Shown one piece after another: positions 20,380-56,571 of a DNA stretch of 64,000 nt. Each line of letters starts with the position of its first letter. The stretch's first letter is position 1. The stretch lies in NCBI GenBank assembly GCA_016183325.1, contig JACPEV010000009.1, positions 1,303 through 65,302 on the forward strand. The letters are read 5' to 3'. A program made the position numbers and the translations under genes. Below the pieces are notes generated by a model. That model ran no database searches. It was given only the letters and a program-made list of their open reading frames with translations, and was not told the DNA's origin. This stretch comes from Candidatus Curtissbacteria bacterium. GTDB lineage: Bacteria > Patescibacteriota > Microgenomatia > Curtissbacterales > GWA2-41-24.

Positions 20380-20661
20380 TTATACTTCTGTTATTTTACC
20401 CCTTTGTCTCAATATTTGTAGATATTCATTATTAGAAAGATCACATCTTTTGTAATCATTTAATCGTGTAATGCTTAAACCTAGTTGTTTTGCTATGAGT
20501 GGTATATCTTTATCCTTTATTCCTGAATGGGAGCGTTTGGTTTTAAGTATGTATTTATTTCGATAAAAAATGTGATAAAAATAATGGTCGTTAGTATCTT
20601 CTTCTACTGTAAAAACTTCTTTTAGTTTAGTAATTATCTGATTAAAATCATGGATTCTCAT
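20380..20661 (-). CDS. HicA-like putative toxin (93 aa)
   Basis: KRSHSGIKDKDIPLIAKQLGLS resembles the HicA/YcfA ...H...GTLksIlKQaGL C-terminal signature; last gene of a 3-gene minus-strand operon. Confidence 0.4.
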   Translation of the reverse strand: MRIHDFNQIITKLKEVFTVEEDTNDHYFYHIFYRNKYILKTKRSHSGIKDKDIPLIAKQLGLSITRLNDYKRCDLSNNEYLQILRQRGKITEV

Positions 20662-21044
20662 TACCTTACGTTTTCAAGATAGTCTCTTAAAAATTCCCAA
20701 TACTTCACAGCAGAAGGTCCAAGACGATTTTCACCCACATCTTTTAACTTTTTATACAATAAAGCAATTTGCAACTTAATATTAGCGAGTGCTTTTTCCA
20801 AATCTTTGTCTCTTGCCCATAATTCAAGCTCATTTTGTTCAACATAATAATCTTCTCCGTCGAAATTTACGTTGAAATATATGGGTTTATGTAAAAGTAA
20901 GTTGGAGTCCAGACTATAGATAGAATTAATACCTGCGATTGCTATGTCTGGGGCAATAAATTTAGGCGTACTATTAGATAAAGTTCCGACGCTGTAAATC
21001 CACTGACTGAACTCGTCGGATTTTTTAGTATAATTTATGTCCAT
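20661..21044 (-). CDS. HicB/UPF0150-like domain protein (putative antitoxin partner, 127 aa)
   Basis: HKPIYFNVNFDGEDYYVEQNELELWARDKDLEKALANIKLQIALL matches the HicB N-domain pattern kYpvv..e.d.GgY.a.vPdLpGc...G.TleEAlen.keAi; 1-nt start/stop overlap with the downstream gene. Confidence 0.4.
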   Translation of the reverse strand: MDINYTKKSDEFSQWIYSVGTLSNSTPKFIAPDIAIAGINSIYSLDSNLLLHKPIYFNVNFDGEDYYVEQNELELWARDKDLEKALANIKLQIALLYKKLKDVGENRLGPSAVKYWEFLRDYLENVR

Positions 21045-21046
21045 GG

Positions 21047-21334
21047 TTATTTATCCTCCTTTTTTTCCAGCTGGCTCCTAAGAGCTTCTAGAAATGCTTT
21101 TGCGATTTCTAAAGGTAAAACTATCTCTGACAACACTGGAATTCTTGTTTCTTTCTCTTTTTTTATTTTTTCTAATTCCCCTGGGTTAGCTGGTGGTTTT
21201 AGATCACAAAATTTTATAGATACATCTAAACCAGTTTTTGTTACCTCAACGTAGTTTGAATAAATACGCTGACTTCCGTCTGGGCGGTAAGCGATAATTT
21301 TTAATGGTACAGGCTGTTCATTTTTATTGGCCAT
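21047..21334 (-). CDS. DUF3467-like small protein (95 aa)
   Basis: YSNYVEVTKTGLDVSIKFCDL ... RIPVLSEIVLPLEIAKAFLEALRSQLEK fits the DUF3467 pattern from memory; first gene of the 3-gene operon. Confidence 0.35.
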   Translation of the reverse strand: MANKNEQPVPLKIIAYRPDGSQRIYSNYVEVTKTGLDVSIKFCDLKPPANPGELEKIKKEKETRIPVLSEIVLPLEIAKAFLEALRSQLEKKEDK

Positions 21335-29202: not shown

Positions 29203-29604
29203 ATGGATAGAATCCGTGTTAAGATTATTGATATGGGACATAGAGATAGTTTCTTTAAGCATCAGATAGTCAGTTTTTCTTATGCTATCGAAGGAATCAT
29301 TTATAGCTTTAAAAAAGGTACTCATTTTAAAATCCAGACTCTGGCCGCAGTTGCGGCCGTAATTGCCGCAGTCATTTATAAAATTAGCTATATTGAATGG
29401 TTGACTATCATCCTTATCTCGTCAGCCATTCTGGCTGCCGAAGCGATCAACACGGGCATTGAAGAAACTGGCGATGTTTTGCATCCCGAACATCATCCTC
29501 GCGTCAAATTGGCCAAACACTGCGCCGCCGGCGGTGTCCTCATCCTATCCATCGCAGCAGTCATTATCGGAGCAATTATTTTCCTCCCAAAAATCTTCGT
29601 CTAA
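29203..29604 (+). CDS. dgkA: Diacylglycerol/undecaprenol kinase family protein (DgkA-like)
   Basis: ...EWLTIILISSAILAAEAINTGIEETGD...HPRVKLAKHCAAGGVLI... DgkA motifs. Confidence 0.75.
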   Translation: MDRIRVKIIDMGHRDSFFKHQIVSFSYAIEGIIYSFKKGTHFKIQTLAAVAAVIAAVIYKISYIEWLTIILISSAILAAEAINTGIEETGDVLHPEHHPRVKLAKHCAAGGVLILSIAAVIIGAIIFLPKIFV

Positions 29605-29706: not shown

Positions 29707-30882
29707 ATGAAAAATACTTTTTTCATCAAAACCTTTGGTTGTCAGCAAAATTTAGCCGATTCCCAGCGGATTGCAAGCTACTATCTTGCTCGCGGTTACC
29801 GTCAGACCAACACTATGGAGTCGGCAAGTGAAATTGTTATCAACACGTGCATGATTCGTCAAACCGCAGAGGACAAAGTTACGGGTCTTGTTAAAAATAT
29901 CTTAAAACAATCAGCTCTCCGAGCCAGAGGCTCTCTGAGCCGGAGGCCCAAAATTGTCATCACGGGCTGCATGGTGGGCATGGCTGTTCGCGACGAAACT
30001 GGCAAGTATTTAAAAGCCCTAAGAAAAAGAATGCCTGAAGTCGACGAGTTTTTACCCCTTGAGGAAGTTGGTTTCGATTATCCTGCCCTAAGAAATGATG
30101 TTACACATAGCTGGGTCCCGATCTCAAACGGTTGCAACAATTTCTGCACCTTTTGTGTCGTGCCCTTCACACGTGGTCGGGAAGTATCCCGTCCATTTGA
30201 GGACATAATCTCAGAAATCAAAGAATTAGCCAGCATTGGCTGCAGGGAAGTTACCTTACTCGGTCAAAACGTCAATTCCTATGGAGCCGACTTAGTAAAA
30301 AACTCAAAAGGCTACAAATTGCCAAATGGTAGGCTAGTCAAACCGGTAATGGTCAAACACTTGGGTCGTTATCGTATTCCGACGTTGTTTCCATATCTTT
30401 TGGAAGAAGTTTGCAAAATCAAAGGCATTAAGATCGTTAAGTTTATTTCCTCAAACCCTTGGGATTTTTCAGACGAACTAATTGATGTAATCACCAAAAA
30501 TAAAAAAATCGACAGAAATTTACACTTAGCAGTTCAGTCAGGAGATGACGGAGTTCTTAAAAGAATGAATAGATGGTACACGAGAGAAGAATATATTAAT
30601 CTGGTTAAAAAAATTAAATCAAAAATCAAAGGTGCTCAAATATCAACAGATATTATTGTTGGCTTTCCAGGCGAGACGGAAGACCAATTTAAAAATATTA
30701 TCAAACTCGCCAAAGAAGCAAACTTTGCCTATGCTTATGTCTCCAAATATTCCCAACGTCCCAATACTGCTGCAACCAAAGCTTTTCCGGATGATATTCC
30801 CCATACTGAAAAAGAACGTCGCTTCCACATTGTTGATCAGCTCATCAACCACAAGGGCAATCCCCGCTCAGCAGTTCACTGA
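29707..30882 (+). CDS. MiaB/RimO-family radical SAM methylthiotransferase (no obvious C-terminal TRAM domain)
   Basis: N-terminal MTTase domain FIKTFGCQQN; radical SAM CNNFCTFCVVP. Confidence 0.8.
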   Translation: MKNTFFIKTFGCQQNLADSQRIASYYLARGYRQTNTMESASEIVINTCMIRQTAEDKVTGLVKNILKQSALRARGSLSRRPKIVITGCMVGMAVRDETGKYLKALRKRMPEVDEFLPLEEVGFDYPALRNDVTHSWVPISNGCNNFCTFCVVPFTRGREVSRPFEDIISEIKELASIGCREVTLLGQNVNSYGADLVKNSKGYKLPNGRLVKPVMVKHLGRYRIPTLFPYLLEEVCKIKGIKIVKFISSNPWDFSDELIDVITKNKKIDRNLHLAVQSGDDGVLKRMNRWYTREEYINLVKKIKSKIKGAQISTDIIVGFPGETEDQFKNIIKLAKEANFAYAYVSKYSQRPNTAATKAFPDDIPHTEKERRFHIVDQLINHKGNPRSAVH

Positions 30883-30967: not shown

Positions 30968-32305
30968 TCATCTCCACGTCGGAAGCCACATATATTTATC
31001 TATCGCAGCTACTTCAATCGGCCAACCAGAGGAAATTGGATAAAAATAGAAGAAAACAACAGCCACCAGAATTAAAAATATCAACACCAAATATTTCGCT
31101 CTACTTTTGTAAATTTGAAAAAGTGCCACTCCTAAAGCTATCGCCAAAAATGGAAGAGATGGAAGATAGTGGTGTAAAAAAAGTATCCTTGGGGTAAAAA
31201 CGAATGGTAGCCAAAAGATAAAGTATCCCAGAAGTATCAGTAAATATTTCTTTTCTCTTTCCGCAATCAACCGCCCTACAATATAAGAAATAGCCACTAA
31301 TCCTGCCCAAAAAATTAAAGGATTTCCAAGCGCATAAATATAACCGGCTTTTTCTCCCGCTTCGCCGCGAGGCGAGCGAGGCGAGCCGTATTGCTCGTAA
31401 GAAAAATACACGGGGCGTATATCAAGCGCCCAAGGGCAAAAAGTTTTTGGGCCACTGAGCCCTTTGGGAGCACAAAAAATCGGTGTCGTTGCGTACGAAT
31501 GCTCAAGATCTCCTCGACTTTGATACCACCAAATTTGTTGGTGCAAGTTATAAAATTGTTTAAAAGTGTAACCTTGAAGCCAAAATTGGCTGTAAGACAG
31601 AAGGTAAATCACTCCCGGGATAATAAATAAACTCAAAATTTTAGGGCTCACTAGCTTCTGCTTGAAATCATCCCAGAAGATATAAATAAAAAGAGCCAAT
31701 ATTGCCCAGAAACCTGTCCATTTAGTTGCAATCGAAAAACCTAAAAATAGACTCGTTAAAAATAAGAGAACTGATCTTTTCTTAACACCTCCGAGGTGGC
31801 TGAAGGACTCCTCGGAGGTGGACCTTACATAAAGAGCAGCAAAAATAAACGACATTAATACAAAAAATGTCACAAAAACGTCATTCATCGTAATGCGGCT
31901 CATGACAAATGTTAAATTTTCAAACGCTATAACAGTGGCAGCAAAAATCGCAACCACCGGCCCAAATAACAAATTAGCAAGAACAAAAGTTGCGCCAATT
32001 ATGCCTGTGCCAAAAATAGCACTTGGCAACCTCCACCCAAATGGCACGTCACCGAAAATCTTGATCGACCCCGCCTGAATCAACTTTGCCAGCGGTGGAT
32101 GCAGCCAATCATAAGCGGTTCCCTCTTTAGGTGCTGGAGAAAAAGGATCATAAGGCGCCGGATTATTGTCAGCGTAAGCTTTCGCCGTCACCGCATGATA
32201 AACTTCGTCAAAGTAGTAGTGACTGGGCTCTGTCAATCGGAATAAACGGATCGCCAAGGAAAAAACTGTCAAAAATATAAGAAGAACAAAAATTATTCTA
32301 TTCAT
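30968..32305 (-). CDS. GT-C fold glycosyltransferase, PMT/GT39-like membrane protein
   Basis: N-terminal YYFDEVYHAVTAKAY...YDWLHPPLAKLIQAGSIKIFG (DE motif); contains an in-frame palindromic insert at 31786-31820. Confidence 0.7.
   Translation of the reverse strand: MNRIIFVLLIFLTVFSLAIRLFRLTEPSHYYFDEVYHAVTAKAYADNNPAPYDPFSPAPKEGTAYDWLHPPLAKLIQAGSIKIFGDVPFGWRLPSAIFGTGIIGATFVLANLLFGPVVAIFAATVIAFENLTFVMSRITMNDVFVTFFVLMSFIFAALYVRSTSEESFSHLGGVKKRSVLLFLTSLFLGFSIATKWTGFWAILALFIYIFWDDFKQKLVSPKILSLFIIPGVIYLLSYSQFWLQGYTFKQFYNLHQQIWWYQSRGDLEHSYATTPIFCAPKGLSGPKTFCPWALDIRPVYFSYEQYGSPRSPRGEAGEKAGYIYALGNPLIFWAGLVAISYIVGRLIAEREKKYLLILLGYFIFWLPFVFTPRILFLHHYLPSLPFLAIALGVALFQIYKSRAKYLVLIFLILVAVVFFYFYPISSGWPIEVAAIDKYMWLPTWR
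31786..31820. repeat. In-frame inverted-repeat mini-element cacctccgaggagtcc...cacctcggaggtg (minus-strand orientation) inside the GT39-like gene
   Basis: Same arms as the element at 41806-41887 in miaA; encodes STSEESFSHLGGV. Confidence 0.7.
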
Positions 32306-32312
32306 CTTAAAT

Positions 32313-34010
32313 TTAAAAATTTGGTCTCAATCTCAATATTAATAAAATCATTAAAACAATTAAAGAAGCAATACTGATACTATTACCAATATTTCGAATA
32401 GGAGTATTTTTAAAAATCAATTTTATGTTATGGGTCCCTTTTTCGATGTAAAAATTGATCAACCCATGTTTATCTTTAGATAAGGGGGTTTCTTTATTGT
32501 CGATATATAGCTTCCAACCAGGGAAATAAAAAGTATTAGCTCGAATTTGTGCAGTTTGAAAACTAGTGATGTTTGCTGAATATAAAAGGTTATCTTTTCG
32601 TATGTTAGTAATGCTGCTTGATAAACTATCATCTTCAAAAAATGGATGAGTCCATGCAGGGCCACGATTTTCAATAAGTTTAAGTAGCTGATAGTAAGAT
32701 TGTCTAGGCGGCCCAAATTCAGTTTCTGGGAATAGTCCAGAATTAGTCTTAATCATAGTTATATAATCTACGTCTGTAAAAGAAAAACGTGTTGTTATTA
32801 CTTTTGAATACGGCCAATATAAAAATAAAGATAACACAATTATTACAAACGAAAACATTAATTGAAACTTCTTAATTATGACCACAATTATTGAAACTAG
32901 AGCGGCAACTGCAAATGTGGCAATTTCGAGAAACCTCCAAGGGAAGATAATAAATTTCAAGAAAGAAAAGACTTCATAAATTGAAGAGGAGGCCTTCGTT
33001 ATAAAATAAATAGAGGCCATGAAAATAATTAATAAGAAAATCCCCAGGGAGATTAAATGATTCGTGGGCTTACTTCTGATTTTAGATTTATTTATAACTA
33101 ATAAAAAAATGAACACAATTGGTATTACTATATGAACAAGACCTAACTGAAAAGACATAGAATTTTCTTGATTTGATGGAACAGCAAAATGATATTGCCA
33201 CTTCGAATAAATAATTGATTTCAGTGAAGGATAACCATTATCGAAATGATAAGCATTAGAAATATTTGTAAATTTGTTTTCTAAAATTGCCGGTATCCAG
33301 AAAAAAGCAGCCAAACCAAGTCCAAGTACAAAAACATAAATACTATTTATAAAAAACTTTAAATTAGCCTTAAGTCTTAGTTGCAAATAAAACGCGTAAA
33401 TAAAATATAAACCAGCCCCGATTAAAGACATGATATTATGGTTAAGAATAAACAGCATCCAAACTACACTGGTCCATAATGGAAATGTCTTTTGTTTCGA
33501 ATTATAAGCACAAGTTATCAAATAAAATAAGATTGGGAAAAAAAGAAAAGAAGTCGTCTCGCCAAGAGCCCCTCTTATAAAAATATCGGTAAATTGGTAG
33601 GGGGCCCATAAATATAATGTACTTCCAACTAAGGCAGCGAGGTCATTCTTCAAAAGTTTTTTAAGAAATAATAAAGAGAATATTCCTGAGAGTATATATC
33701 CAATACCAAATACCCCCTTAATGCTTGATTGATATGAAAAACCTAAAGAATGAAGAAGACTCCCTACATAATAGGGAAGGTTATAATTTAAAATAAATAC
33801 AGGTGATCCATAACCAGCCATCCATGTTGGAAGCCACCTTACAGGAAACTGCCCATCTCTAAGTGCTTCATTAAAATGGGCAAGCCGCATAATATGGGTA
33901 AATCCATCATGAGTATCAAAAAAACCAGGAAGAAAAAGTTCACGGATACCAATCAATGAAACTATTACTATTATTAAAAGTGGAACTAATATTCCTTGTG
34001 TGTTTTTCAC
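32313..34010 (-). CDS. Large polytopic membrane protein (565 aa), putative GT-C-like
   Basis: FFDTHDGFTHIMRLAHFNEALRDGQFPVRWLPTWMAGYGSP... plus >10 predicted TM segments. Confidence 0.6.
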   Translation of the reverse strand: MKNTQGILVPLLIIVIVSLIGIRELFLPGFFDTHDGFTHIMRLAHFNEALRDGQFPVRWLPTWMAGYGSPVFILNYNLPYYVGSLLHSLGFSYQSSIKGVFGIGYILSGIFSLLFLKKLLKNDLAALVGSTLYLWAPYQFTDIFIRGALGETTSFLFFPILFYLITCAYNSKQKTFPLWTSVVWMLFILNHNIMSLIGAGLYFIYAFYLQLRLKANLKFFINSIYVFVLGLGLAAFFWIPAILENKFTNISNAYHFDNGYPSLKSIIYSKWQYHFAVPSNQENSMSFQLGLVHIVIPIVFIFLLVINKSKIRSKPTNHLISLGIFLLIIFMASIYFITKASSSIYEVFSFLKFIIFPWRFLEIATFAVAALVSIIVVIIKKFQLMFSFVIIVLSLFLYWPYSKVITTRFSFTDVDYITMIKTNSGLFPETEFGPPRQSYYQLLKLIENRGPAWTHPFFEDDSLSSSITNIRKDNLLYSANITSFQTAQIRANTFYFPGWKLYIDNKETPLSKDKHGLINFYIEKGTHNIKLIFKNTPIRNIGNSISIASLIVLMILLILRLRPNF

Positions 34011-34149
34011 AATAGAATTGATATAAATTTTCTCTAAATCAGTTTATCAGGATGGCTTATCTAGATCAAAAAACAGTTGTTATACTCTTAAAAAAAATGG
34101 TTAAAGTTGCTGTTAACTTCGATGGTTTAGCCCAACCATTTAATTTATA

Positions 34150-36078
34150 ATGGATTTAATGCTATTAACTATTTTAGTGATTATAATTACGGTTTTTTTT
34201 GGATATGCTATTTTAAGTCTTTTCGCAACGCAATTGAGATTCAACGAAAAAATAGCTTCTAGTTTTATAATTGGAATCTCGTTATATTCATTATTAACCT
34301 TTTTGATTGCGAATGTCTTTAAGTTAAGTTTTTTAACTATTTTTTTCTCTACAACAATTGTTGTCTTATTTGCGGTAGTAATTTTGGTAAAAAGAAAATC
34401 CTATTATTTCAAAGATTTTTTAACATCTCATGAGCAAATAAAAAATTTTTTGAAAAACAAGTATTTACTATTCACTTTTATTTTTTTCACCATTCTTTTT
34501 TCTAAAATTTTTTACCAAACTTTCGTTCCTGAAAAAGCCGGCTTTTATGCAGGTTCACTAGGATTTTGGGGTGATGGCGCTTTGCATCTCACATTGATTA
34601 ACTCCTTTTTTAAAGGAGATAATTTTTGGCCCCAACAACCACTTTTTGCAGGTGTTAAATTAAGCTATCCGTTTTTACCGGACTTCACCAGTAGTATTTT
34701 CCTAAAGTTGGGAAGTTCAGTGCGCACTGCTATAGCACTTCCTTCTGTACTATTACTTTCCGCATCAATCTTGCTTCTCTACTCGATTTTCCATCAAATA
34801 ACTAAATCTAAGCTTGCCGCTTCTCTAGCAATCTTCATAATATTTTTCCTTGGCGGTTTAGGTTTTATCTACTTCTTCGAGGATTTGGTCAGGACCAATT
34901 TCGCATTTTCTACATTTGCATATCCTCCAAGAGAATACACATCGATGGGAAACGAGAAAGGTATCCACTACATTAATCTAATTACATCTCCTATAGTTTC
35001 TCAAAGAGCCTTTTTATTTGGTTTTCCTCTGATTTTGGTAATTTATATGGTCTTAAGAGAGGCTTTGGAAAAGTTAGACGTAAAACAATTTATTTTCGCT
35101 GGTCTATTAGTAGGTGTTCTGCCATTTATACACAGTCACACTCTTCTGACCTTGGGAATTGCGTTGCCTGTATTTGCTTTAGTTAACCTAATTAATAGGC
35201 CAAAGTCCGAAATAAAAAAGCTCTTTTTATTGTGGACCATTTTTGGAATAATCGCTGCTGCTCTAATTGTCCCACAACTTTTATTGTTTTTTCCCCGGGA
35301 CATCTCGGTTAACACTCTGCGGTTTCAATTTGGCTGGATGGCTCATGTTAAAAATGACAATATTTTTTGGTTTTGGATCAAAAATACTGGCCTTTTAATA
35401 CCTTTAATTATATTGTCTCCAATAGTTTTAGGAAAACAGAAATTTATCAAACTCTTTAAGTTTTATTTGCCATTTTTGGGAATTTTCATTGTTGCAAATT
35501 TTATTATATTCCAACCCTTAGAATACGATAACAGTAAAGTTTTTAACTATTGGTATATTTTTTCCGCACCGCTTGCTGCAACAGTAATTATAAACTTTTT
35601 AAAGAGGAATTCACTGTTTAAAATTATTGGGGTGGTTCTTTTTATCGTCCTTATCTTATCAGGTTTTTTAGATGTTTGGCGCTTGAATAATTATCAAGAG
35701 AACAGAATTCTAATGTTTGATAATGAAAGTATTAAACTTGCTGATTTTGTTTCTATTCATACTGAACCAAGATCAATTTTTGTTACGGCCATTCAACACA
35801 ATCATTCTGTCTTAGCTCTTGCAGGAAGAAGGGTTTTAGTTGGTTACACTGGATGGTTGTGGACTTACAGTATTAACTATGGTCCACGTGAGCAAGATGT
35901 CAGAATGATCTATCAAGGGGGCAATCTATCCCAAAACTTACTTAATAAATATAGCGTTAATTATCTTGTTATCGGGCCAGTAGAGAGTTCGCAGTTTCAA
36001 ATAAATGAACAATTTTTCGAGCAAAATTTCGCCCGTATTTACTCAACGCCTGCGTATCGAGTTTATAAAATATCATGA
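34150..36078 (+). CDS. Large polytopic membrane protein, paralog family member 1 (642 aa)
   Basis: Shares N-terminal W.DG.H....SF.KGDNFWPQQPLFAG..LSYPFL and C-terminal LAGRRVLVGYTGWLW...GPREQDV motifs with 37455-39251 and 39294-41201. Confidence 0.7.
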   Translation: MDLMLLTILVIIITVFFGYAILSLFATQLRFNEKIASSFIIGISLYSLLTFLIANVFKLSFLTIFFSTTIVVLFAVVILVKRKSYYFKDFLTSHEQIKNFLKNKYLLFTFIFFTILFSKIFYQTFVPEKAGFYAGSLGFWGDGALHLTLINSFFKGDNFWPQQPLFAGVKLSYPFLPDFTSSIFLKLGSSVRTAIALPSVLLLSASILLLYSIFHQITKSKLAASLAIFIIFFLGGLGFIYFFEDLVRTNFAFSTFAYPPREYTSMGNEKGIHYINLITSPIVSQRAFLFGFPLILVIYMVLREALEKLDVKQFIFAGLLVGVLPFIHSHTLLTLGIALPVFALVNLINRPKSEIKKLFLLWTIFGIIAAALIVPQLLLFFPRDISVNTLRFQFGWMAHVKNDNIFWFWIKNTGLLIPLIILSPIVLGKQKFIKLFKFYLPFLGIFIVANFIIFQPLEYDNSKVFNYWYIFSAPLAATVIINFLKRNSLFKIIGVVLFIVLILSGFLDVWRLNNYQENRILMFDNESIKLADFVSIHTEPRSIFVTAIQHNHSVLALAGRRVLVGYTGWLWTYSINYGPREQDVRMIYQGGNLSQNLLNKYSVNYLVIGPVESSQFQINEQFFEQNFARIYSTPAYRVYKIS

Positions 36079-36100
36079 GAATTAAAACTTTATCTTTTTA

Positions 36101-37463
36101 ATGCGTACAACTTTATTCACCATTTTGCTGTTGTTGATTACAATTTTAGGTTTAATTCTACGATTTTTAGATTATGACAAATTCCCTCCATTTGATGCCA
36201 CTAAGGATGAATTCTTTTATTCTTGGGCAGGGATGTCTTTAATTCAAACGGGTACTCCAAAATCTTGGTCAATATTTAACGCATATCCAGATGGAGAACT
36301 TGTTTATAAATGGGGTACATGGTATAGGTTAGTTTCTCCTTGGTTAGATAAACCTCCGTTATATTCTTTAATTACTGGTTCATGGGTTTTATTAAATGGT
36401 GCAAGAGATCTATTCGATGTACGTCTATCCATCTTGAGAGTTATCCTTATTTTTTAAAGTTTTTTCACTATTTTCTTAACCGGTATATTAGCTAAAAAAA
36501 TTTTCTCGCCAACAGTCGGAATTCTTGCCTCATTGCTATATGCATTCACTCCGACCATAGTAATATCTAATCGTCTTTCACTTACTGAAAACTTACTAAC
36601 ACCGCTCTCTCTTCTTACTCTTTGGTTTTTCTCCCAAAATCAACAGGGGATATGGTCAAAAATCAAACCTTGGGTCGTCGGATTGACTTGCGGCTTGGCT
36701 CTCATCTCCAAAAATATCGCCATCACCTTGCCAGCTGTCTTAATCTGGTTGCTTTTCGAGAAAAAACAATGGCGTAATTTATTAATCATTGCTGCATTTT
36801 CTTTATTCTTTGCCTTAATCCATCCCCTTATCGGTCTTTATTACAATTGGGATCTTTATCTTGCAGTCTTGGCCGATTATGGAAAGGCCCACAGTCTGGG
36901 ATTACCCAAGCTAGTTACTACTCTCTTCAGATTCCCCGTCATTGGCCATAAAGAAGCCATTTTCCTAGATGGATCCATACTCGCAGGCTATATTCTTTTT
37001 TTTCAGTTCGCCGTTTTGGCTAAAAGGCAAATTAGAAGATATGAATCTTAAACTACTGTTAGCTTTTCCCTTTGCTACTCTGGTTCTCCTTTCAGAATTA
37101 GAAGGCGGAAAGACCTTTTTCGGTTGGCACCTATTTCCTCTATTTCCGTTTCTCTCGATACTTCTGGCCAAAGCCTTTTACGATCTCTGGCAAAATCCCA
37201 ATTTATTAAAATCATTGTTTTTCTATCTAATTCTCGGCTCATCAACGGTCCGCTTTTTTCTACTCTTGACACTCCAATCTCAAAAATCATGGCAATGGAT
37301 TTTAGGGACGTTGTTGGTAATTTTAATTGTTGGATTTTTCCCGAAAACTGCCTATCGACGAATTGTCTTACTGGCTTACTTTATGGTGTTTTTCGTTGTC
37401 AATGTTTTAGTAGTCATCAATCTAAACCAAATTTATCCCAGCTATCCGCAACCCTTAGAGTAA
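36101..37463 (+). pseudogene. Disrupted PMT/GT-C-like glycosyltransferase gene (in-frame TAA at 36455-36457, then a frameshift near 36970-37050)
   Basis: ORFs 36101-36457 and 36533-37051 are in the same frame, separated by one stop with continuous sense on both sides. Third piece 36969-37463 is in another frame; T8 homopolymer at ~36998. Confidence 0.55.
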
Positions 37464-39251
37464 GAGAACTAAGTATTTCTGATTCTGGTAGACTTTTTTG
37501 AACTGTTGTGGAGCTTCGAAGTTATATTTATCGACGGGAATTACTATGTATTTAACAGGTACCTCCAAATTACCAATCTGCGAAAAATTACCAGCTAAAA
37601 TTTGATTAACTTCTTGTTCCCGCTTACCATAATCAATTCCATGAACCCAAAGATGTCCGGGATAACCGATGTAAACTAAACGTCCAGCCAATCCAGAAAT
37701 TGGGTTGACAGGAGTTGGTTCAACTATAAACACGTCACGAGTATTGGTGTTTGATTTTGCCCAATTGGCAAGATCAATATCCCAATTGTCATAAAGTACG
37801 TATCTATTTTTTAATTGCAATTCTAAAGATAAAGATCCGCTGGCGATAGAGATCAGGATAATTACTCCGGCAGTGACCTTTGCGACTAGTCCCTTTTGGG
37901 CAAGTTTTGCAAGCAAAAATCCAGTCAAAATCACAAAAAACAAGAAAGACCACGATAAAAGCTTTATATTATCCCAATCCCAAGGCTGAAAAATCACCAA
38001 ATTGGCGATTATAAAAACCACAAAAGCAGGAATAAAGAATATTTTTTGATCACGCTTTACAAACCAAAACCCCAGTATTGCCAAAGGAATTGTCAAAAAC
38101 GTATTTTTAAGCCAAAAGACTAGAATATTTTCATCCCCATTTTGCCAACCCAGACTTGTATGCAAGAATTGACTAACTTGATGATTTGTAAAAAACAAAA
38201 ATAAAAAGGGGACCATCGTCGCAACAGCCACCAAACCCATTGAAGAAAAATCAACAAATGCTTTTTTGAAATTTTGTCGCATTGACCAGACAGCAAAGAT
38301 TGCACTAACAATTGAGAAGAAAATAAAAGAGTGTGTATGCCAGAAAGGCAAAGATCCCAAAATCAGACCGTTAATCAACAAAAGCTTTCTATCCTTTGGC
38401 CCGAAATATTCCATGAAATTTGAAAACATCAAAAGCCCTAAGAAAAGCCCCGGCAAAAAACTTCTCTCAGACAATACAAGTCCTGTCAAGATATTGCGAA
38501 AGTATAAATTATATTGGGCATTATCAGTATAATCTTTTGTCAAAAATTGCCAAAAGCCTCCACCTTGAGTACCCCATTCATTTAAAAAGAAAATTACGCC
38601 AACACCCCAACCCAAAAATAAAATCAAAAGTGAGATCACAAAACCTATATCCGAAGTAAATTTTCTACAAATCTGATAGAAGAGAACCAAAAATCCTATC
38701 AAAAACAAAATCTGTGGTAAGGAAAATGCTAAATTGAAATTTAAACCGGCGATTTTTAGTGTTGACGAAAGTAAATCATTGGCAAATGGATAAACTAAAA
38801 TGCGGCCTGCAAAAAGAGGATTCTGGATTGGAAACTCACCGGTTGTCAGTCGTGAAGTATAGGCGGCATGCAGAGCCGAGTCTCCATACATCCCACCGCC
38901 ACCAGTTTTTAATCCAACGCTTGTTGCAGCCAGGGTTTGGGTCAGCCAAATATAAGCCAATAACATCGTTGTAACTGCGGTGACTGCCAAAAATACTGGC
39001 GAAATTTCGCCAAAATCGTTCTTCGGTTTAAACTTCACAAAAATTGTCAATGCCAAGATTCCTGCCACAATCAGTGCTACAATAACCCCATTGAATAAAC
39101 CTAGAAAAAAAGAAAAAAGCAGCGCAAGCTCGCCAAAAACAAAAAGACCTAAAGCCGGTGCCACCAATAACCTGTATGGCCAGCCAAAATTTTTAGGCAA
39201 AATAGGGACAAATCCTATCCCCAAGGCCGCAATAGCCAAAAGCAAAAGCAT
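37455..39251 (-). CDS. Large polytopic membrane protein, paralog family member 2 (598 aa)
   Basis: Motifs PIQNPLFAGRILVYPF and LAGRLVYIGYPGHLWVHGIDYGKREQEV. Confidence 0.7.
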   Translation of the reverse strand: MLLLLAIAALGIGFVPILPKNFGWPYRLLVAPALGLFVFGELALLFSFFLGLFNGVIVALIVAGILALTIFVKFKPKNDFGEISPVFLAVTAVTTMLLAYIWLTQTLAATSVGLKTGGGGMYGDSALHAAYTSRLTTGEFPIQNPLFAGRILVYPFANDLLSSTLKIAGLNFNLAFSLPQILFLIGFLVLFYQICRKFTSDIGFVISLLILFLGWGVGVIFFLNEWGTQGGGFWQFLTKDYTDNAQYNLYFRNILTGLVLSERSFLPGLFLGLLMFSNFMEYFGPKDRKLLLINGLILGSLPFWHTHSFIFFSIVSAIFAVWSMRQNFKKAFVDFSSMGLVAVATMVPFLFLFFTNHQVSQFLHTSLGWQNGDENILVFWLKNTFLTIPLAILGFWFVKRDQKIFFIPAFVVFIIANLVIFQPWDWDNIKLLSWSFLFFVILTGFLLAKLAQKGLVAKVTAGVIILISIASGSLSLELQLKNRYVLYDNWDIDLANWAKSNTNTRDVFIVEPTPVNPISGLAGRLVYIGYPGHLWVHGIDYGKREQEVNQILAGNFSQIGNLEVPVKYIVIPVDKYNFEAPQQFKKVYQNQKYLVLLL

Positions 39252-39293
39252 GATATTAGTATATTTAGTATATAGAGTACAATACTTGCAGTC

Positions 39294-41201
39294 ATGGGCT
39301 CAATTTTTTTGCTTCTCTCCTCATTTATCTCTGGCCTGGCAACTTTAGAATTAACCCAGATTGTTTTGCCTTGGCCAGTGCGTGCTGTTTTTGCCACCGT
39401 TTTAGGTCTTATTATTAATACTTTAGCCATCTTTTTAGTTTCTCTATTTGTAAAATTTAATCTGATCAGTGTCCTGGTAACAATCTTTTTAATTTCTTTG
39501 CCTTCATTAATTTATTTAATTAAAAAATCTTCGTTTCAAAATATTATTGAAGATAATCTGGATATTAAAAAGAATTGGCAGATAATTTTAGGATTTTCGA
39601 TCATTACAATTTTTTTAATTTTAATTTTTAGCAAATCTATTTTCGTCAATTCCAGTGGCATCATCGCAGGCAACCGTCTCGTTTGGACCGATTGGCCAGT
39701 CCACATAGCCATCATTACATCGTTTGTGAAAGGTGATAATTTCCCGCCCCAGAACCCATTATATGCAGGCCAACTTATCTCCTATCCTTTCCTCTCAAAT
39801 TTTCTCTCAAGTGTCTTGCAGATTTTAGGCGCTAGCCTAAAAACCTCTCTGGTTCTTCCGGGCATACTTCTTGGACTGTCGGCAATAACAACCGTCTATT
39901 TTTTGGGGATTCTCTTAACAGCCCAAAAACAGATGGCCATCACAGGACTTTTGATCGGCGTTTTTTGGGGAGGATTGGGATTTTTATATTACGCTGTCGA
40001 CCTGCTTTCATCACCCAATTTTATTGAAACACTCAAGTTTCCTCCAATAGAGTACACTTTTTATCATCTCAAAAATTTATGGTTTTTCTCATTTTTGTAC
40101 TCTGAACTTTTACCTCAAAGGGCTTTCCTCTTTGGCCTGCCAATGTTTTTTATGGCACTGATACTCTTGATTCTTGGATTATCCCACCATAAAAAGACCT
40201 ATTTACTAGTCGCTGGTTATTTGGTTGGCATCATGCCCTTTTTCCATATGCATTCTTATCTTAGCTTCTTACTTTTCAGTGTTATTTTTATTCCGCTTGC
40301 GCAAGTTACCAGTTTAAAAAAAAATGGCCAAACTTCGACCAAAAGACAACTAATCTATGTCATTATTTATTTTGCCCTGCCCATCATTGGTCTTGGTTTA
40401 ATTCAACTCCCGTTTTTGCTTTCAATTAATTTAAATCAAACTTTTGGTTTTAACTGGGGCTGGATGAAAGAGCAAGAAAACTTTTTTTTATTTTGGTTTA
40501 AAAATACCGGATTCTTCTGGCCTCTATGGCTCTTTGCAATTTTCAAAACCAAATTAAATCAACTTGTCAAAAATGTGGCCATTGCCTCAGCAATTTTATT
40601 TATACTACCTAATATTTTTCGCTTTGCTCCCTGGCCCTATGACAATCTAAAAATTATGACTTATTGGTATTTAATCGGCGCTTTTTTAGTTGCCATTGCC
40701 CTAGTAGAAATCTACAAAAAAGGTCTTTCGGGGAAAATTTTGGCCATCGCTCTTTTTATTTCTCTGACTGCATCAGGAGCAATCGAGGTTTTTCGAATTT
40801 TCAATACCCCAAAAACTCAAATTCCTCTTTGGTCCTCAAAGGACATCGAACTTTCAAACTCTATCATTAAAAATACCGAAGCAGAGTCAGTAATCTTAAC
40901 CGCCGCCGTCCACGATCATCCCGTAACTGCCCTTGCTGGCAGAAAAATCATCATTGGTTTTCCCGGCAACGCCTGGTCATGGGGACTTGCCGATTGGTCA
41001 CAAAGAGAAGCAGATGTTAGAACCATCCTCAAGGGTGATGCCATTTATGCTCCTTATCTTCTTGCCAAATATAAAGTCAACTATGTCCTGATCAGTCCTC
41101 GAGAAAGATATTTTGAACCGGGTTTAAATGAACAGTACTTTCAAGAGAAATTTACCTTTGTCATTGGCGATTCTGATTACAAATTGTTTAAAGTCCCATG
41201 A
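39294..41201 (+). CDS. Large polytopic membrane protein, paralog family member 3 (635 aa)
   Basis: Motifs PPQNPLYAGQLISYPFL and LAGRKIIIGFPGNAWSWGLADWSQREADV. Confidence 0.7.
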   Translation: MGSIFLLLSSFISGLATLELTQIVLPWPVRAVFATVLGLIINTLAIFLVSLFVKFNLISVLVTIFLISLPSLIYLIKKSSFQNIIEDNLDIKKNWQIILGFSIITIFLILIFSKSIFVNSSGIIAGNRLVWTDWPVHIAIITSFVKGDNFPPQNPLYAGQLISYPFLSNFLSSVLQILGASLKTSLVLPGILLGLSAITTVYFLGILLTAQKQMAITGLLIGVFWGGLGFLYYAVDLLSSPNFIETLKFPPIEYTFYHLKNLWFFSFLYSELLPQRAFLFGLPMFFMALILLILGLSHHKKTYLLVAGYLVGIMPFFHMHSYLSFLLFSVIFIPLAQVTSLKKNGQTSTKRQLIYVIIYFALPIIGLGLIQLPFLLSINLNQTFGFNWGWMKEQENFFLFWFKNTGFFWPLWLFAIFKTKLNQLVKNVAIASAILFILPNIFRFAPWPYDNLKIMTYWYLIGAFLVAIALVEIYKKGLSGKILAIALFISLTASGAIEVFRIFNTPKTQIPLWSSKDIELSNSIIKNTEAESVILTAAVHDHPVTALAGRKIIIGFPGNAWSWGLADWSQREADVRTILKGDAIYAPYLLAKYKVNYVLISPRERYFEPGLNEQYFQEKFTFVIGDSDYKLFKVP

Positions 41202-42271
41202 AAAGAGTGCTTGTAATTTATGGCCCTACCGCAACCGGCAAGACTGATCTGGCTATTTCTTTAGCCAAAAAATTTAATGGAGAAATAATTTCTGCAGATT
41301 CTAGACAAGTCTATAGAGGTTTGGATATTGGCACAGGCAAAGTATCAATTCAAAAGTTAAGCGATCCAGCAATTCAGAAGTTCGAAAGCTTCTGGGTTGT
41401 AGATGGTGTCAGAATTCACGGTTTCGATCTGGTAGGATCACCCGTTCACGAACCCGGCTTGCAGAATTATTCCAAGCCGGGTTCGGAAGCTTTGGTTCGA
41501 TTTTCCGCCGCTGATTTCTTAAAATTTGCATCTACTACGATGATTCGAATCATTGAACAAAACAAATTACCTATTGTAGTAGGCGGGACGGGATTTTATA
41601 TTAAGACTTTAACTAGCGGTGTTGATACAATCGGAATTCCGGCAAATCCCGTACTACGTCGACAACTTGCTGATTTGTCAGTTGGCGAGCTTTATCAAAA
41701 ATTCGAATCGATCGATCCAAATCGCGCCAGATCAATGAACAGATCGGATCGTGCTAACCCTCGCCGGCTGATTCGTGCCATTGAAATCGCAATTCATAAG
41801 TCGTTCACCTCCGAGGAGTCCCCTTCGACTACTTCGACTACGCTCAGTACAAGTTCACTCAGGGCAAGCGAGCCCACCTCGGAGGTGAACACGAGCTACC
41901 AACTACCCGCTACCAGCTACTTACTCCTCGGTCTAACCGCCCCCAACAATTTCCTCTACCAGCGAGCCGATTGGTGGCTCGATCAGCAGCTTGCCCATGG
42001 CATGATCGAAGAAGTCCAAAAATTACTCGATCACAAAATTAACCCAATTTGGCTTGATAGCTTAGGACTTGAATATCGCTGGCTTTCTCGATACTTACTG
42101 AGGAAGATAAGTTTTAAAGAAGCTGTCGCCAGACTTAAAGGCGACACTCACAGTTTTATCAGACGCCAAAAAACCTGGTTTAGAAAGTTTAAAAACATCC
42201 AACTTTTTGATATCTCAAAAGACAATTGGCAAAAAGAGTTAGAAAAGAAACTTCAGCTTTGGTATCATTAA
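41198..42271 (+). CDS. miaA: tRNA dimethylallyltransferase with ~35-aa low-complexity in-frame insertion
   Basis: GPTATGKTDLAI P-loop, ADSRQVYRGLDIGT; insertion ...SFTSEESPSTTSTTLSTSSLRASEPTSEVNT... encoded by a palindromic element. Confidence 0.85.
   Translation: MKRVLVIYGPTATGKTDLAISLAKKFNGEIISADSRQVYRGLDIGTGKVSIQKLSDPAIQKFESFWVVDGVRIHGFDLVGSPVHEPGLQNYSKPGSEALVRFSAADFLKFASTTMIRIIEQNKLPIVVGGTGFYIKTLTSGVDTIGIPANPVLRRQLADLSVGELYQKFESIDPNRARSMNRSDRANPRRLIRAIEIAIHKSFTSEESPSTTSTTLSTSSLRASEPTSEVNTSYQLPATSYLLLGLTAPNNFLYQRADWWLDQQLAHGMIEEVQKLLDHKINPIWLDSLGLEYRWLSRYLLRKISFKEAVARLKGDTHSFIRRQKTWFRKFKNIQLFDISKDNWQKELEKKLQLWYH
41806..41887. repeat. In-frame inverted-repeat mini-element cacctccgaggagtcc...(53 nt)...cacctcggaggtg inside miaA
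   Basis: Perfect 11-bp inverted arms cacctccgagg / cctcggaggtg; internal tandem cttcgacta x2; same arms as 31786-31820. Confidence 0.7.
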
Positions 42272-52240: not shown

Positions 52241-52702
52241 TTAGTTGTTATTTACCAAACACTTTTCAAACCTTATTTTCTCATCAGCCGTCAATACAGA
52301 AGTATTTTCGGCAACAATCAAATTCTTAATGGAAGTATCTGAGAGCGCATTTTTGACACAGGCAATATTAACTCTTCCCACTCTCGGAATATTTGCTTCA
52401 GTCGGCTGCTGTTTTTCAGCCTGTTGTTGTTCTTGTGCTTGTGGTTGTTGAACTTGTCCATCTTTGATTTGTCCAGTTCCAGCCCCATTTGCACCTAAAA
52501 CTTTGTTAAAAGTGCCGTTTCTAAAGTTTTGAATAACAAAGATGGAAAGTGATCCTCCTAAAAAGATCCAAATTGCCATCGATAAAACCATCATCAAAAC
52601 AAATATTCTCCTGAAAAATGGAAGCAGATTTAGTCTAAAAGAAGTTTTAGATATCGCCTTTAATCTTTTTTGAAATTTTTTTAACAATTTCTCTGCCTTC
52701 AT
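52241..52702 (-). CDS. Membrane-anchored small protein, paralog A (153 aa; TM anchor, Gln-rich linker, 2-Cys C-terminal domain)
   Basis: Paralog of 54446-54853: IPRVGRVNIACVKNALSDTSIKNLI...ADEKIRFEKCLV vs LSGIGKVKVDCVQSALSSDSIQKMV...DEEKAKLEPCIL. Confidence 0.55.
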   Translation of the reverse strand: MKAEKLLKKFQKRLKAISKTSFRLNLLPFFRRIFVLMMVLSMAIWIFLGGSLSIFVIQNFRNGTFNKVLGANGAGTGQIKDGQVQQPQAQEQQQAEKQQPTEANIPRVGRVNIACVKNALSDTSIKNLIVAENTSVLTADEKIRFEKCLVNNN

Positions 52703-53292: not shown

Positions 53293-53655
53293 TTATATCT
53301 TAATCGCTTTGCCAACAAAATCATCAGGATCTTTACCGGAAATAAAATTTGTGACAAGTTTATCTATTTCCTCATTCGATAATTGAGATTCAATTCCTAA
53401 AATACCTGGTTTTCCTATTTTCACCAATTTCTTAAAATCTTTAAGATTAACCGTCAGGACGAATCTGTTTTCCTCTATTGCTTTCTGGTAAATTTCTTTG
53501 TCCTCAGCTTGAATTGGTAAGTGGCAATCATGAACAGAATGAGAAACGTTTGCCTTTTTTGAAAGTTTTGGAAATTGCCCAGGTTTTGCAAAAGCCGAAT
53601 CTAATAGAATTCTGAATTTTCTTGGGTGCCTTTTGGGGGTTTTATTTCTGCGCAA
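53293..53655 (-). CDS. DUF5615-like protein (PIN-like putative toxin of the DUF433/DUF5615 pair)
   Basis: FRILLDSAFAKP...HSVHDC...EDKEIYQKAIEENRFVLTVNLKDFKKL fits the DUF5615 pattern. Confidence 0.55.
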   Translation of the reverse strand: MRRNKTPKRHPRKFRILLDSAFAKPGQFPKLSKKANVSHSVHDCHLPIQAEDKEIYQKAIEENRFVLTVNLKDFKKLVKIGKPGILGIESQLSNEEIDKLVTNFISGKDPDDFVGKAIKI

Positions 53656-53983
53656 GTTGCTTTTGGTAATAAGTAAAGATCGTCAGCAAATCTTTTTTAG
53701 TTAGATCGAGATATGGGTAGTCTTCCTTGAAGTCTTTTATTTTGTATCCCTGAACATAAAGCGCCACAATACGCGCAATAGGAATCCTTGTCCCCTTAAT
53801 TACCGGTTGTCCTCCTAAAATTCTTGGATTAGTCTGAATAATGTCTGGCATAGTAATATTATACACGCAACTTGCAACCATCTGCTGGCCGACTTTTTCG
53901 GATTTTTCTAAAGCTGATAATTTTTGTCTTCTGAGGCAGCCGTTATCAGTTCTCTGGTTTTGGCTACCCGGCTCAGTGGGCAA
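53642..53983 (-). CDS. DUF433-like protein (putative antitoxin partner); true start probably internal (~53851 or ~53881)
   Basis: NPRILGGQPVIKGTRIPIARIVALYVQGYKIKDFKEDYPYLDLTKKDLLTIFTYY fits DUF433; 14-nt overlap with the downstream DUF5615 gene. Confidence 0.55.
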   Translation of the reverse strand: MPTEPGSQNQRTDNGCLRRQKLSALEKSEKVGQQMVASCVYNITMPDIIQTNPRILGGQPVIKGTRIPIARIVALYVQGYKIKDFKEDYPYLDLTKKDLLTIFTYYQKQLAQK

Positions 53984-54046: not shown

Positions 54047-54460
54047 ATGGCAAATTCGCAAAAACCAAACGTCGAAGAGCTCAAGAACAAGCTCACGCCC
54101 GAGCAATATAACATTTGTTTCTTAAAAGGCACGGAGCCTCCGTTTAGCGGAAAGTACACTGACAACTTTGACAAAGGCATATATCACTGCGTCGTTTGCG
54201 ACACGCCGCTTTTCTACTCGACTGCCAAATTCCACTCCGATTCCGGCTGGCCAAGCTTTGATCGACCCATCGACAAAAAAAACATTAAATACGAAAAAGA
54301 CTCAAGTCTTGGCATGGAAAGGACCGAAATTATCTGCAAAACTTGTGGCGCACATTTGGGCCATGTTTTTGACGATGGCCCAACCGCAACGAAAAAAAGA
54401 TATTGCATCAATTCCCTGGCACTGGACTTTAGAGAAGAAAATTTATTAGCTAGAGGGTGA
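54047..54460 (+). CDS. msrB: Peptide methionine sulfoxide reductase MsrB
   Basis: CxxC...CxxC zinc site, GWPSF and RYCINS motifs. Confidence 0.9.
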   Translation: MANSQKPNVEELKNKLTPEQYNICFLKGTEPPFSGKYTDNFDKGIYHCVVCDTPLFYSTAKFHSDSGWPSFDRPIDKKNIKYEKDSSLGMERTEIICKTCGAHLGHVFDDGPTATKKRYCINSLALDFREENLLARG

Positions 54461-54853
54461 AGGGCTTGCGGCTTTTTCCAAGATACAAGGCTCAAGCTTT
54501 GCTTTTTCCTCGTCAGTCAAAGAATTCGTGCTACCCTCTTGAACCATTTTTTGTATCGAATCGGAACTCAAAGCGCTTTGAACACAATCAACTTTTACCT
54601 TGCCAATTCCCGACAAATTTACCTCAGATGGCACTTGTTGTGAGACCGCTTGTTGTTGGGGACCAGTTGAGTTGAAAATTTCTTGATATGCGCCCTGGCG
54701 CAAATTTGCATAGATAGAAAGCAAAACGAAAATGCCAACGACGATCCAGATTAAATGAAATATCAATGACAAAAATCTATCGACTGCCCAAAGTAACGGT
54801 TTTTTATGCGGCGCTGGTTCTGACACAATTTCTTTAACTGTATTTCTTGCCAT
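54446..54853 (-). CDS. Membrane-anchored small protein, paralog B (135 aa)
   Basis: See 52241-52702; same architecture and conserved Cys pair. Confidence 0.55.
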   Translation of the reverse strand: MARNTVKEIVSEPAPHKKPLLWAVDRFLSLIFHLIWIVVGIFVLLSIYANLRQGAYQEIFNSTGPQQQAVSQQVPSEVNLSGIGKVKVDCVQSALSSDSIQKMVQEGSTNSLTDEEKAKLEPCILEKAASPSPSS

Positions 54854-55557: not shown

Positions 55558-56571
55558 ATGGCGGGCCGTTTAAGCTACAAAATAGCAACATTAGGTTCGC
55601 ACTCCGCGCTCCAAATCTTAAAAGGCGCCAAGGATGAGGGGTTCCAAACTCTCCTTGTCGCGACTCCAGGCCGTCTTTCTCTCTATAAACGCTTCAAATT
55701 TATAGACAAAATTATTCAGATCTCCTCTTATTCAGATTTCCCAAAAATCGAAAAACAACTCATTGCCGAAAACGCGGTCATTGTTCCACACGGCTCATTT
55801 GTTGCATATTTAGGCATCGATGAAAATAAAAAAATAAATGTTCCCTATTTTGGTAATAAAGCTGTTTTGGATTGGGAATCGGACAGACTTAAACAACGCT
55901 ATTGGTTAGAAAGTGCCAATGTCCCCGTTCCCCGAAGATTTACTCACCCCAGCGATATAGATGTTCCTGTCTTGGTTAAGTCTTACGGCGCTGCCGGTGG
56001 CCATGGTTATTTTTTCGCCAAAAATAAAGGAGAGTTTAAACAAAAAATCAAAAGTTTTAAAGCCAAAAATTACATCATTCAGGAATATGTCATTGGTGTT
56101 TCAGCTTACATCCATTACTTTTACTCTCCACTAACACAAAAACTTGAAATTCTCTCAATCGATAGGCGTTATGAAACCAATGTCGACTCTCTCGGCAGGA
56201 TTCCTTCTCACAATCAGCAAGGGCTTGGCATTGAACCTTCTTTTGTAGTTGTCGGCAATAGCCCGCTGGTTCTGCGCGAATCACTTTTGGTTGATGCTTT
56301 TGAAATGGGTGAGCGTACGATTGCTGCCTCCAAAAAATTAATGAAAGGTGGACTTTGGGGACCGTTTTGTCTTGAGGCCATAATTACCCCAGCTCAAGAA
56401 TTTTTCGTCATCGAAATTTCCTGCCGCATTGTTGCCGGCACAAACTTATTCATCAACGGTTCACCATACTCCTCACTATACTGGGACAAAGAAGTTTCCA
56501 CCGGTCGAAGAATCGCTATGGAAATTAAAGATGCGATAAAGAAACGGTTACTGAGTAAAATTTTAAATTAG
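55558..56571 (+). CDS. purP: Archaeal-type FAICAR synthetase (PurP, formate-dependent ATP-grasp), paralog 1
   Basis: IATLGSHSALQILKGAKDEGF...VPHGSFVAYLG...FGN...HYFYSP...IDRRYETN...GPFCLE close to characterised archaeal PurP. Confidence 0.8.
   Translation: MAGRLSYKIATLGSHSALQILKGAKDEGFQTLLVATPGRLSLYKRFKFIDKIIQISSYSDFPKIEKQLIAENAVIVPHGSFVAYLGIDENKKINVPYFGNKAVLDWESDRLKQRYWLESANVPVPRRFTHPSDIDVPVLVKSYGAAGGHGYFFAKNKGEFKQKIKSFKAKNYIIQEYVIGVSAYIHYFYSPLTQKLEILSIDRRYETNVDSLGRIPSHNQQGLGIEPSFVVVGNSPLVLRESLLVDAFEMGERTIAASKKLMKGGLWGPFCLEAIITPAQEFFVIEISCRIVAGTNLFINGSPYSSLYWDKEVSTGRRIAMEIKDAIKKRLLSKILN

Follow-up and report, generated by a model that had tools for sequence, protein, structure and literature searches.

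What do five large polytopic membrane proteins, encoded within about 10 kb together with a sixth, broken gene, do for a bacterium of the Candidatus Curtissbacteria? We examined this locus in a stretch of 64,000 nucleotides (assembly GCA_016183325.1, contig JACPEV010000009.1), hereafter called the window. A first-pass annotation, made from the letters alone, had described five open reading frames (ORFs) of 445, 565, 642, 598 and 635 amino acids (aa) on both strands, had taken them for polytopic glycosyltransferases of the C fold type (GT-C) and had read them as the expansion of one family. The ORF list bears out the five frames at their coordinates, and Pfam, together with Foldseek searches of structural models of genes E and B, indicates that all six genes are GT-C-like. 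The single expansion does not stand. The six genes represent four families: a PMT/GT39-like gene (A), a PF10131/YfhO-like gene (B), a PMT_2/ArnT-like pseudogene, and three ancient paralogs (C, D and E). BLAST detects no significant similarity among gene A, gene B and the C/D/E group, the five intact genes thus forming three mutually unalignable families. Gene A, gene B and the pseudogene each add a member to a GT-C family already known. Taken as a whole, the region is likely to be a conserved module of extracytoplasmic GT-C glycosyltransferases, of four families, that depend on lipid-linked sugars. Its genes are laid out as follows:

30968–32305, minus strand: gene A, 445 aa, PMT-type (GT39-like) GT-C without MIR domains
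32313–34010, minus strand: gene B, 565 aa, PF10131 (PTPS_related)/YfhO-like GT-C
34150–36078, plus strand: gene C, 642 aa, first member of an unnamed GT-C-fold family
36101–37463, plus strand: PMT_2-type (ArnT-like) GT-C pseudogene with two lesions
37455–39251, minus strand: gene D, 598 aa, second member of the unnamed family
39294–41201, plus strand: gene E, 635 aa, third member of the unnamed family; its protein is 100% identical to NCBI protein HYU92_03185

Firstly, gene A is, judged from its sequence, a distant member of the PMT/GT39 type. It carries both Pfam domains above their cutoffs (PMT, 73.7 bits against 22.7; PMT_4TMC, 65.9 bits against 32.4), and the DExYHA motif announced for it is present as YFDEVYHA. 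Within this loop-1 FDEVYH motif, F32, D33 and E34 are invariant in a 16-sequence alignment of A and 15 relatives. The two domains and the loop-1 DE motif are shared with the GT39 enzymes (yeast Pmt1-Pmt2, PDB 6p25, and actinobacterial Pmt), and a weak sequence match to yeast Pmt1/Pmt2 was recovered. The protein fails the NCBIfam protein O-mannosyltransferase equivalog (NF058602), with 72.7 bits against a cutoff of 800, which makes it a distant PMT member whose mannose specificity is putative. Bacterial Pmt enzymes lack MIR domains, as does gene A. Its orthologs in two other Curtissbacteria loci (L001 and L004) are 62–66% identical.

Secondly, gene B falls just under the cutoffs of two Pfam models, YfhO (PF09586; 27.0 bits, cutoff 28.5) and PTPS_related (PF10131; 26.1 bits, cutoff 26.4). 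Both are assigned in the precomputed annotation of a database protein identical to gene B, and PF10131, a member of the Pfam GT-C clan CL0111 without known function (PMC7801869), is carried by most of the 120 gene B homologs listed. Searching PDB sequences with gene B gave nothing or only spurious matches. The AlphaFold2 model, built on 34 homologs (predicted local distance difference test, pLDDT, 91.2), retrieved PglB and STT3 first with Foldseek in the PDB, then Emb, Pmt4, ArnT and AftD; seven GT-C structures matched at E≤1e-3 with a probability of 1.0, and the predicted structure is accordingly that of a GT-C fold. The N-terminal part holds an HDGxxH motif whose aspartate, D35, is invariant in the B family and lies right after the first transmembrane (TM) helix. 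Towards the C terminus, a predicted extracytoplasmic beta-sandwich (about residues 458–533), which matches accessory domains of glycoside hydrolases, precedes the last TM helix (537–561).

Thirdly, we analysed genes C, D and E (642, 598 and 635 aa). The shared N- and C-terminal motifs attributed to them are present in all three proteins. They had been called close paralogs: paralogs they are, but not close ones, since they are only 26–32% identical in pairwise BLAST comparisons and a neighbour-joining tree that includes 50 relatives splits them among three clades, all of which also hold proteins of other genomes. Their sequences thus make them old paralogs; a recent duplication is ruled out by the low identity, the separate clades and the one-to-one orthologs described below. 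None of the three matches any Pfam model above its cutoff, and a Pfam scan of 44 diverse members of their family gave scattered sub-threshold matches to DUF2298, DUF6798, PMT_2 and Dpy19. Genes C and E resemble Chlor_Arch_YYY (TIGR03662) at 33.1 and 34.9 bits, strongest in its C-terminal part (E about 1e-8), and DUF2298/Chlor_Arch_YYY (PF10060, TIGR03662) too comprises uncharacterised polytopic proteins, known from Chloroflexi and Archaea. The resemblance stops there: the TIGR03662 cutoff is 300 bits and DUF2298 was matched at E≤0.01 by just 2 of the 44 members, most of which have no match at all, so that C, D and E belong to a distinct family. PDB sequence searches with gene E and with the C/D/E profile returned nothing, or spurious triosephosphate-isomerase matches to a short C-terminal stretch. 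The profile does align with that of B/PF10131 (hhalign probability 92.5%, E 4.7e-7), and both families have a DxxxH motif where the first outer loop begins.

The structural model of gene E places the family more firmly. It was built on 44 homologs (pLDDT 94.1; predicted TM-score, pTM, 0.93), and all 19 of its Foldseek matches in the PDB at E≤1e-3 are GT-C enzymes (DPY19, STT3, AftA, PglB and ArnT), with a probability of 1.0, at TM-scores of about 0.4–0.55 and identities of 10–13%. In the model, three extra N-terminal TM helices come before a core of 11 TM helices, and the protein ends in an alpha/beta domain that is predicted to be external to the membrane. Some members of the family begin at about profile position 95–100, indicating that these three helices are an optional extension. 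The absence of a Pfam assignment for C, D and E and their approximately 14 TM helices could also be expected of large transporters or permeases. Such proteins appeared in the Foldseek searches solely at E>0.1, with probabilities of at most 0.11 for E and at most 0.16 for E and B together, against the 19 (E) and seven (B) GT-C structures, and the profile link to PF10131, a GT-C clan member, also speaks against them. The idea that these are transporters, the outcome that would have overturned the first-pass annotation, is thus effectively refuted by models and profiles, and we give it almost no credence.

Across the 44 members, C, D and E included, 20 alignment columns are invariant; in E numbering they include D133, H137, Y164-P165-F166, R276, H318, D450-N451-K453, R550 and R571. 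D133 and H137 stand in the predicted outer loop 114–181, following TM1 of the core, and D35 of the B family holds the corresponding position. All invariant columns map to outer loops or outer helix ends, opposite the K/R-rich loops, when sidedness is inferred by applying the positive-inside rule to the TM helices of the model. By predicted fold and by the profile link to PF10131, C, D and E are best described as an unnamed family inside the GT-C superfamily. In overall fold and in the predicted outer C-terminal domain, E and B resemble the GT-C_A structures (DPY19, 7zlh; STT3, 6ezn/8age; PglB, 3rce/5ogl; AftA, 8if8; ArnT, 5f15). They differ from them in showing no detectable sequence homology to any PDB chain, with 10–14% identity and TM-scores of 0.4–0.55, and E further differs in its three additional N-terminal helices and in a motif set of its own (WxDxxxH, GDNFPPQNP, YPF, HxH and PWxYDNxK).

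How far does this unnamed family extend, and with what does it travel? A profile search of 1.84 billion representative proteins recovered 6,329 clusters at E≤1e-3, 2,590 of them at E≤1e-30, and at least 514 loci in GTDB species genomes encode a member. The hosts span many phyla and are mostly free-living: Acidobacteriota (Pyrinomonadaceae, Blastocatellia), Chloroflexota, Dormibacterota, Kuenenia, Brocadia, Omnitrophota, Heliobacteria, Desulfobacteraceae, Pseudonocardiaceae and several groups of the Candidate Phyla Radiation (CPR), together with Bathyarchaeia and one Nitrosopolaris archaeon. Local hidden Markov models (HMMs) detected a PMT or PMT_2 gene within 500 bp of the family gene, nearly always on the same strand, in 53 of 84 non-redundant loci. 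With ORF starts called mechanically, the next ORF downstream is PMT_2 in 36 of 53 loci and the next one upstream PMT in 15 of 37 (in 14 also with PMT_4TMC), the reading frames of the two neighbours often overlapping. In one protein of 1135 aa (P0162), a family module is fused to a PMT_2 domain. Another, of 852 aa (P0164), joins the module to a C-terminal PA14 domain, and an LCP-family gene and PA14 domains were also found among the neighbours of family genes in other phyla. PA14 is commonly a carbohydrate-binding module. The HMM of the PMT genes that flank family members in other phyla matches gene A at 5.5e-79, which makes the pairing of A with C/D/E in the window one of the same kind, and the pseudogene is distantly related to the PMT_2 genes that follow family members in Acidobacteriota.

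The repeated adjacency to PMT and PMT_2 and the one fusion place C, D and E in the same pathway as a PMT-type enzyme, most likely, as far as gene neighbourhoods can tell, as its second step or as its partner in a complex. Tentatively, we go further and propose that the family is a dedicated functional partner of PMT/PMT_2, either extending the chain in the second step of an O-glycosylation pathway widespread among prokaryotes, or forming one part of a heteromeric complex of GT-C proteins, in which case the four GT-C families of Microgenomates would make up one module that builds a surface glycan. The same adjacency, overlapping frames and fusion, and the lack of a sequence-level match between C/D/E and any characterised enzyme, would also fit a family of non-catalytic GT-C-fold proteins (scaffolds, or acceptor- or lipid-binding subunits) in heteromers with PMT/PMT_2, resembling the Pmt1-Pmt2 or EmbA-EmbB pairs except that one partner would be inactive. 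We regard such a purely structural role as improbable. The 20 residues invariant across phyla, with an Asp/His pair at the canonical position after TM1 and charges on the outer face, form a pattern like that of an active site, and the family gene stands alone in some genomes, while D/E pairs occur without an adjacent PMT gene.

We then asked whether the block is conserved among relatives of the host. In several Curtissbacteria it sits between miaB and miaA, in the order PMT (minus), a GT-C of 502–553 aa (minus), an intact PMT_2 (plus), a D-type gene (minus), an E-type gene (plus) and miaA. In L001 and L004, the orthologs of D are 51–67% and those of E 52–64% identical; the divergent D/E pair is also found in L009–L011 and L094. 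The start codons of D and E are 42 bp apart (window positions 39252–39293), against 38 bp in L001 and similar distances in relatives, which leaves very little room for any promoter or regulatory region common to both. What the second slot holds differs between loci: an ortholog of B (43%) in L004 and L005, an unrelated PMT_2-like gene in L001. Gene C is absent from loci of the L001/L004 type. That it is unique to this genome could nevertheless be rejected: an ortholog occupies the same position in Curtissbacteria RBG_13_35_7 (L092:8024-9958) and is 77% identical, against 59–63% for the flanking genes. The GC content at third codon positions is 0.25 for B and 0.30 for C, against 0.35–0.41 for A, D, E, miaB and miaA. 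This low value and the higher identity of the C ortholog suggest recombination or transfer of the B-C segment among Curtissbacteria lineages, and hint that it is the mobile or recombining part of the locus.

The arrangement is not confined to Curtissbacteria. A Gottesmanbacteria contig (L094:1-11881) has a cluster larger than the Curtissbacteria block and without miaB or miaA at its flanks: three genes of PMT_2 type and one of the B family (E 3e-184), a divergently oriented pair resembling D and E, an ORF of 95 aa, and one PMT gene. The presence of the same four families together in a different context indicates, at the level of gene content, that the block is a recurrent functional module in Microgenomates, beyond inherited synteny. 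A diversifying expansion tied to an episymbiotic lifestyle, which the first-pass annotation had suggested, finds no support here: C, D and E are paralogs of ancient origin that have one-to-one orthologs in other Curtissbacteria (the identities above for D and E, 77% for C), the locus is syntenic between miaB and miaA, the same families recur in Gottesmanbacteria, and the C/D/E family is widespread in free-living phyla (Acidobacteriota, Chloroflexota, Dormibacterota), in anammox bacteria and in some archaea. Nothing in these data links the cluster to episymbiosis in particular.

The sixth gene had rightly been recognized as disrupted. It was ruled out as a copy of the C/D/E family, since its ortholog in relatives is a separate, intact gene of PMT_2 type. 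The region 36101–37463 contains three ORF fragments of 118, 172 and 164 aa. The first lesion is an in-frame TAA at 36455–36457, where the ortholog has Leu and beyond which the frame is unchanged; the second is a +1 frameshift by slippage in the T8 run at 36996–37003. Repairing both in silico restores a protein of 453 aa with a KDEFFYSW motif. An intact PMT_2-type ortholog of 460 aa at the same position in L004 aligns over the full length (45% and 41% identity in the two frames), and intact orthologs in related Curtissbacteria (420–461 aa) carry PF13231. The middle fragment scores 25.2 bits against PMT_2 (cutoff 26.1) and also matches GT87. The pseudogene and its intact orthologs thus resemble PMT_2/ArnT enzymes (PF13231, GT83-like), including a DE motif following TM1, and it differs from functional ones in being inactivated by a nonsense codon and a homopolymer frameshift. 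That the lesions are assembly errors is unlikely, for both also stand in a Logan contig (L089, run SRR12113422) that was assembled independently, possibly from the same samples or related ones, and that shows 100% identity to the window over 12,557 bp. As both are single-base events in an otherwise well-conserved sequence, the inactivation is probably recent.

What, then, would the module make? Donor, acceptor, catalysis and order of steps are proposed here from gene content, fold, conserved residues with their predicted sidedness, synteny and gene neighbourhood. In characterised systems, a membrane-associated GT-A enzyme makes a sugar linked to undecaprenyl phosphate (C55-P), a flippase moves it across, and on the outer side a GT-C enzyme passes the sugar on (PMC8035078). 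By analogy, GT-A enzymes encoded elsewhere in the genome would load sugars in the cytoplasm onto undecaprenyl or another polyprenyl phosphate, and the lipid-sugar would be flipped across the membrane. The sugar would then pass to an acceptor outside the membrane, each GT-C relying for this transfer on the acidic/His motif with which its first outer loop begins (DExxH in A; DxxxH in genes B to E). Genes C, D and E could in this way extend or complement O-glycosylation, whether its target is a wall polymer or a protein that is secreted or surface-borne. By the same analogy, the cluster most likely glycosylates surface molecules outside the membrane with polyprenyl-phosphate sugars, and a role in surface or protein glycosylation is our best inference.

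Several observations weigh against this interpretation. The 64-kb window yielded no GT2 polyprenyl-phosphate glycosyltransferase, no flippase of the GtrA type and no nucleotide-sugar gene, 12 of its ORFs of at least 150 aa being outside the direct scans (eight shorter ones in the ribosomal-protein stretch, about 5.9–16 kb, and four in the purine block, about 44.3–51.1 kb, three of these four being identified by synteny with L001–L004 alone). Neither among sequences of solved structures nor among Pfam models does the C/D/E profile have a significant match, and its alignment with the PMT profile is weak (hhalign probability 14.7%), for which reason a direct homology between C/D/E and PMT was dropped. 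The Foldseek TM-scores are modest, and D133 is a candidate equivalent of the known catalytic Asp. Many cases of PMT/PMT_2 adjacency come from related Acidobacteriota and are hence non-independent, the lone fusion P0162 could be a gene-calling or frameshift artefact, and in the CPR locus L095 (Wildermuthbacteria) the family gene is on its own.

The acceptor might also be a cell-wall polymer or glycolipid (a teichoic-acid-like polymer, a secondary wall polysaccharide, an S-layer anchor or a lipoglycan), and not a protein, with different GT-Cs adding different sugars or branches, as do mycobacterial Emb/Aft/PimE or Gram-positive YfhO/GtlB. The structural neighbours AftA, Emb and ArnT, the YfhO/PF10131-like character of B and its beta-sandwich like those of glycoside hydrolase accessory domains, and the LCP-family gene and PA14 domains near family genes in other phyla would all fit such a substrate. 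YfhO-type GT-Cs glycosylate lipoteichoic and wall teichoic acids from C55-P-sugars (PMC8035078). Streptococcal YfhO-family enzymes also glycosylate Ser/Thr-rich disordered regions of membrane-associated proteins (PMC12041528). Gene A is clearly of the PMT plus PMT_4TMC type, whose characterised members O-mannosylate proteins (Pfam description), and our scans found no polymer-synthesis genes in the window. We judge a polymer or glycolipid acceptor less likely; the proposal differs from our preferred reading in the acceptor alone.

Among known systems, the YfhO family (B. subtilis YfhO, Listeria GtlB, streptococcal PgtC2, S. mutans PgfM1/PgfM2) offers the closest parallel to glycosylation by this module, with polytopic GT-Cs that, in monoderm-type bacteria, transfer sugars from C55-P on the outer face (PMC8035078, PMC12041528); the S. 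mutans pgf operon holds two of them (PMC12041528). Gene B matches the C-terminal region of YfhO and PF10131, and the C/D/E profile is related to the B family. In contrast to those systems, neither the locus nor the scanned window yielded a GT-A donor synthase, an epimerase or a GtrA flippase, six GT-C genes of four families stand together, C, D and E fail the YfhO Pfam model, and B itself remains just below both cutoffs.

The locus is bounded, and preceded, by these genes:

29203–29604, plus strand: small membrane kinase of the DAGK_prokar family (Pfam PF01219, 99.4 bits)
29707–30882, plus strand: miaB, left edge of the conserved locus (Pfam Radical_SAM and UPF0004)
41198–42271, plus strand: miaA, right edge of the conserved locus (Pfam IPPT)

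MiaB scores 344.6 bits against the NCBIfam MiaB/RimO subfamily (cutoff 251) and MiaA 161.6 bits against the miaA equivalog (cutoff 148.65); the start codon of miaA overlaps the stop codon of gene E. The kinase, to which the NCBIfam scan gave no assignment, is kept upstream in L001–L003. The DAGK_prokar family takes in undecaprenol kinases, and we infer that this one may help in lipid-carrier recycling. Outside the cluster, the window is core genome by Pfam and NCBIfam scans: on the left the ribosomal protein operon, secY, rpoA, recA/recX, RNase Y, an ABC-2 transporter, the kinase and miaB, and on the right miaA followed by an AI-2E transporter and purine genes.

Other features of the window were recorded. 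A Ser/Thr-rich low-complexity insert in MiaA (about 41795–41930), KSFTSEESPSTTSTTLSTSSLRASEPTSEVNTSYQLPATSY, splits the NCBIfam match in two and is unusual for a cytoplasmic tRNA-modifying enzyme. Inside the purine operon lie two paralogous ATP-grasp genes (55558–56571 and 57854–59194) with DUF1246 and DUF1297, domains that are the mark of PurP, the FAICAR synthetase of archaeal type, so that a late step of purine synthesis in this CPR bacterium may follow the archaeal way. On the minus strand at 20380–21334, between an ABC transporter and recA, three small back-to-back ORFs (93, 127 and 95 aa) form an island in an otherwise plus-strand core region, with reversed AT skew. The 93-aa ORF, the one scanned, has no NCBIfam match; the island may have arisen by insertion of a small mobile or toxin-antitoxin-like element. 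The NCBIfam scan also gave no match for a pair of small overlapping minus-strand ORFs (53293–53983; 120 and 113 aa); the second has what is presumably a DUF433-like motif, GGQPVIKGTRIPI, which would suggest a toxin-antitoxin-type pair. Finally, two paralogous small single-TM proteins, probably secreted or anchored (52241–52702 and 54446–54853, both minus strand), have in common a C-terminal two-cysteine motif, V..V.C V..ALS..SI ... T.EEK...E.C.

In the open-access literature, we found no paper on the C/D/E family or on GT-C/PMT clusters in CPR/Patescibacteria. The cluster is real, conserved and mostly ordinary, its enzymes belonging to a superfamily already known. For many GT-C families no function has been described, even though enzymes of this type make or modify most extracytoplasmic glycoconjugates. 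A large GT-C-fold family outside Pfam is now defined by a motif set, a high-confidence model and a cross-phylum adjacency to PMT-type genes, offering glycobiologists the testable idea that the C/D/E family comprises partner or second-step enzymes of prokaryotic O-glycosylation. That five or six GT-C genes are kept in one block of small CPR genomes suggests that surface glycosylation is a significant investment for these bacteria.

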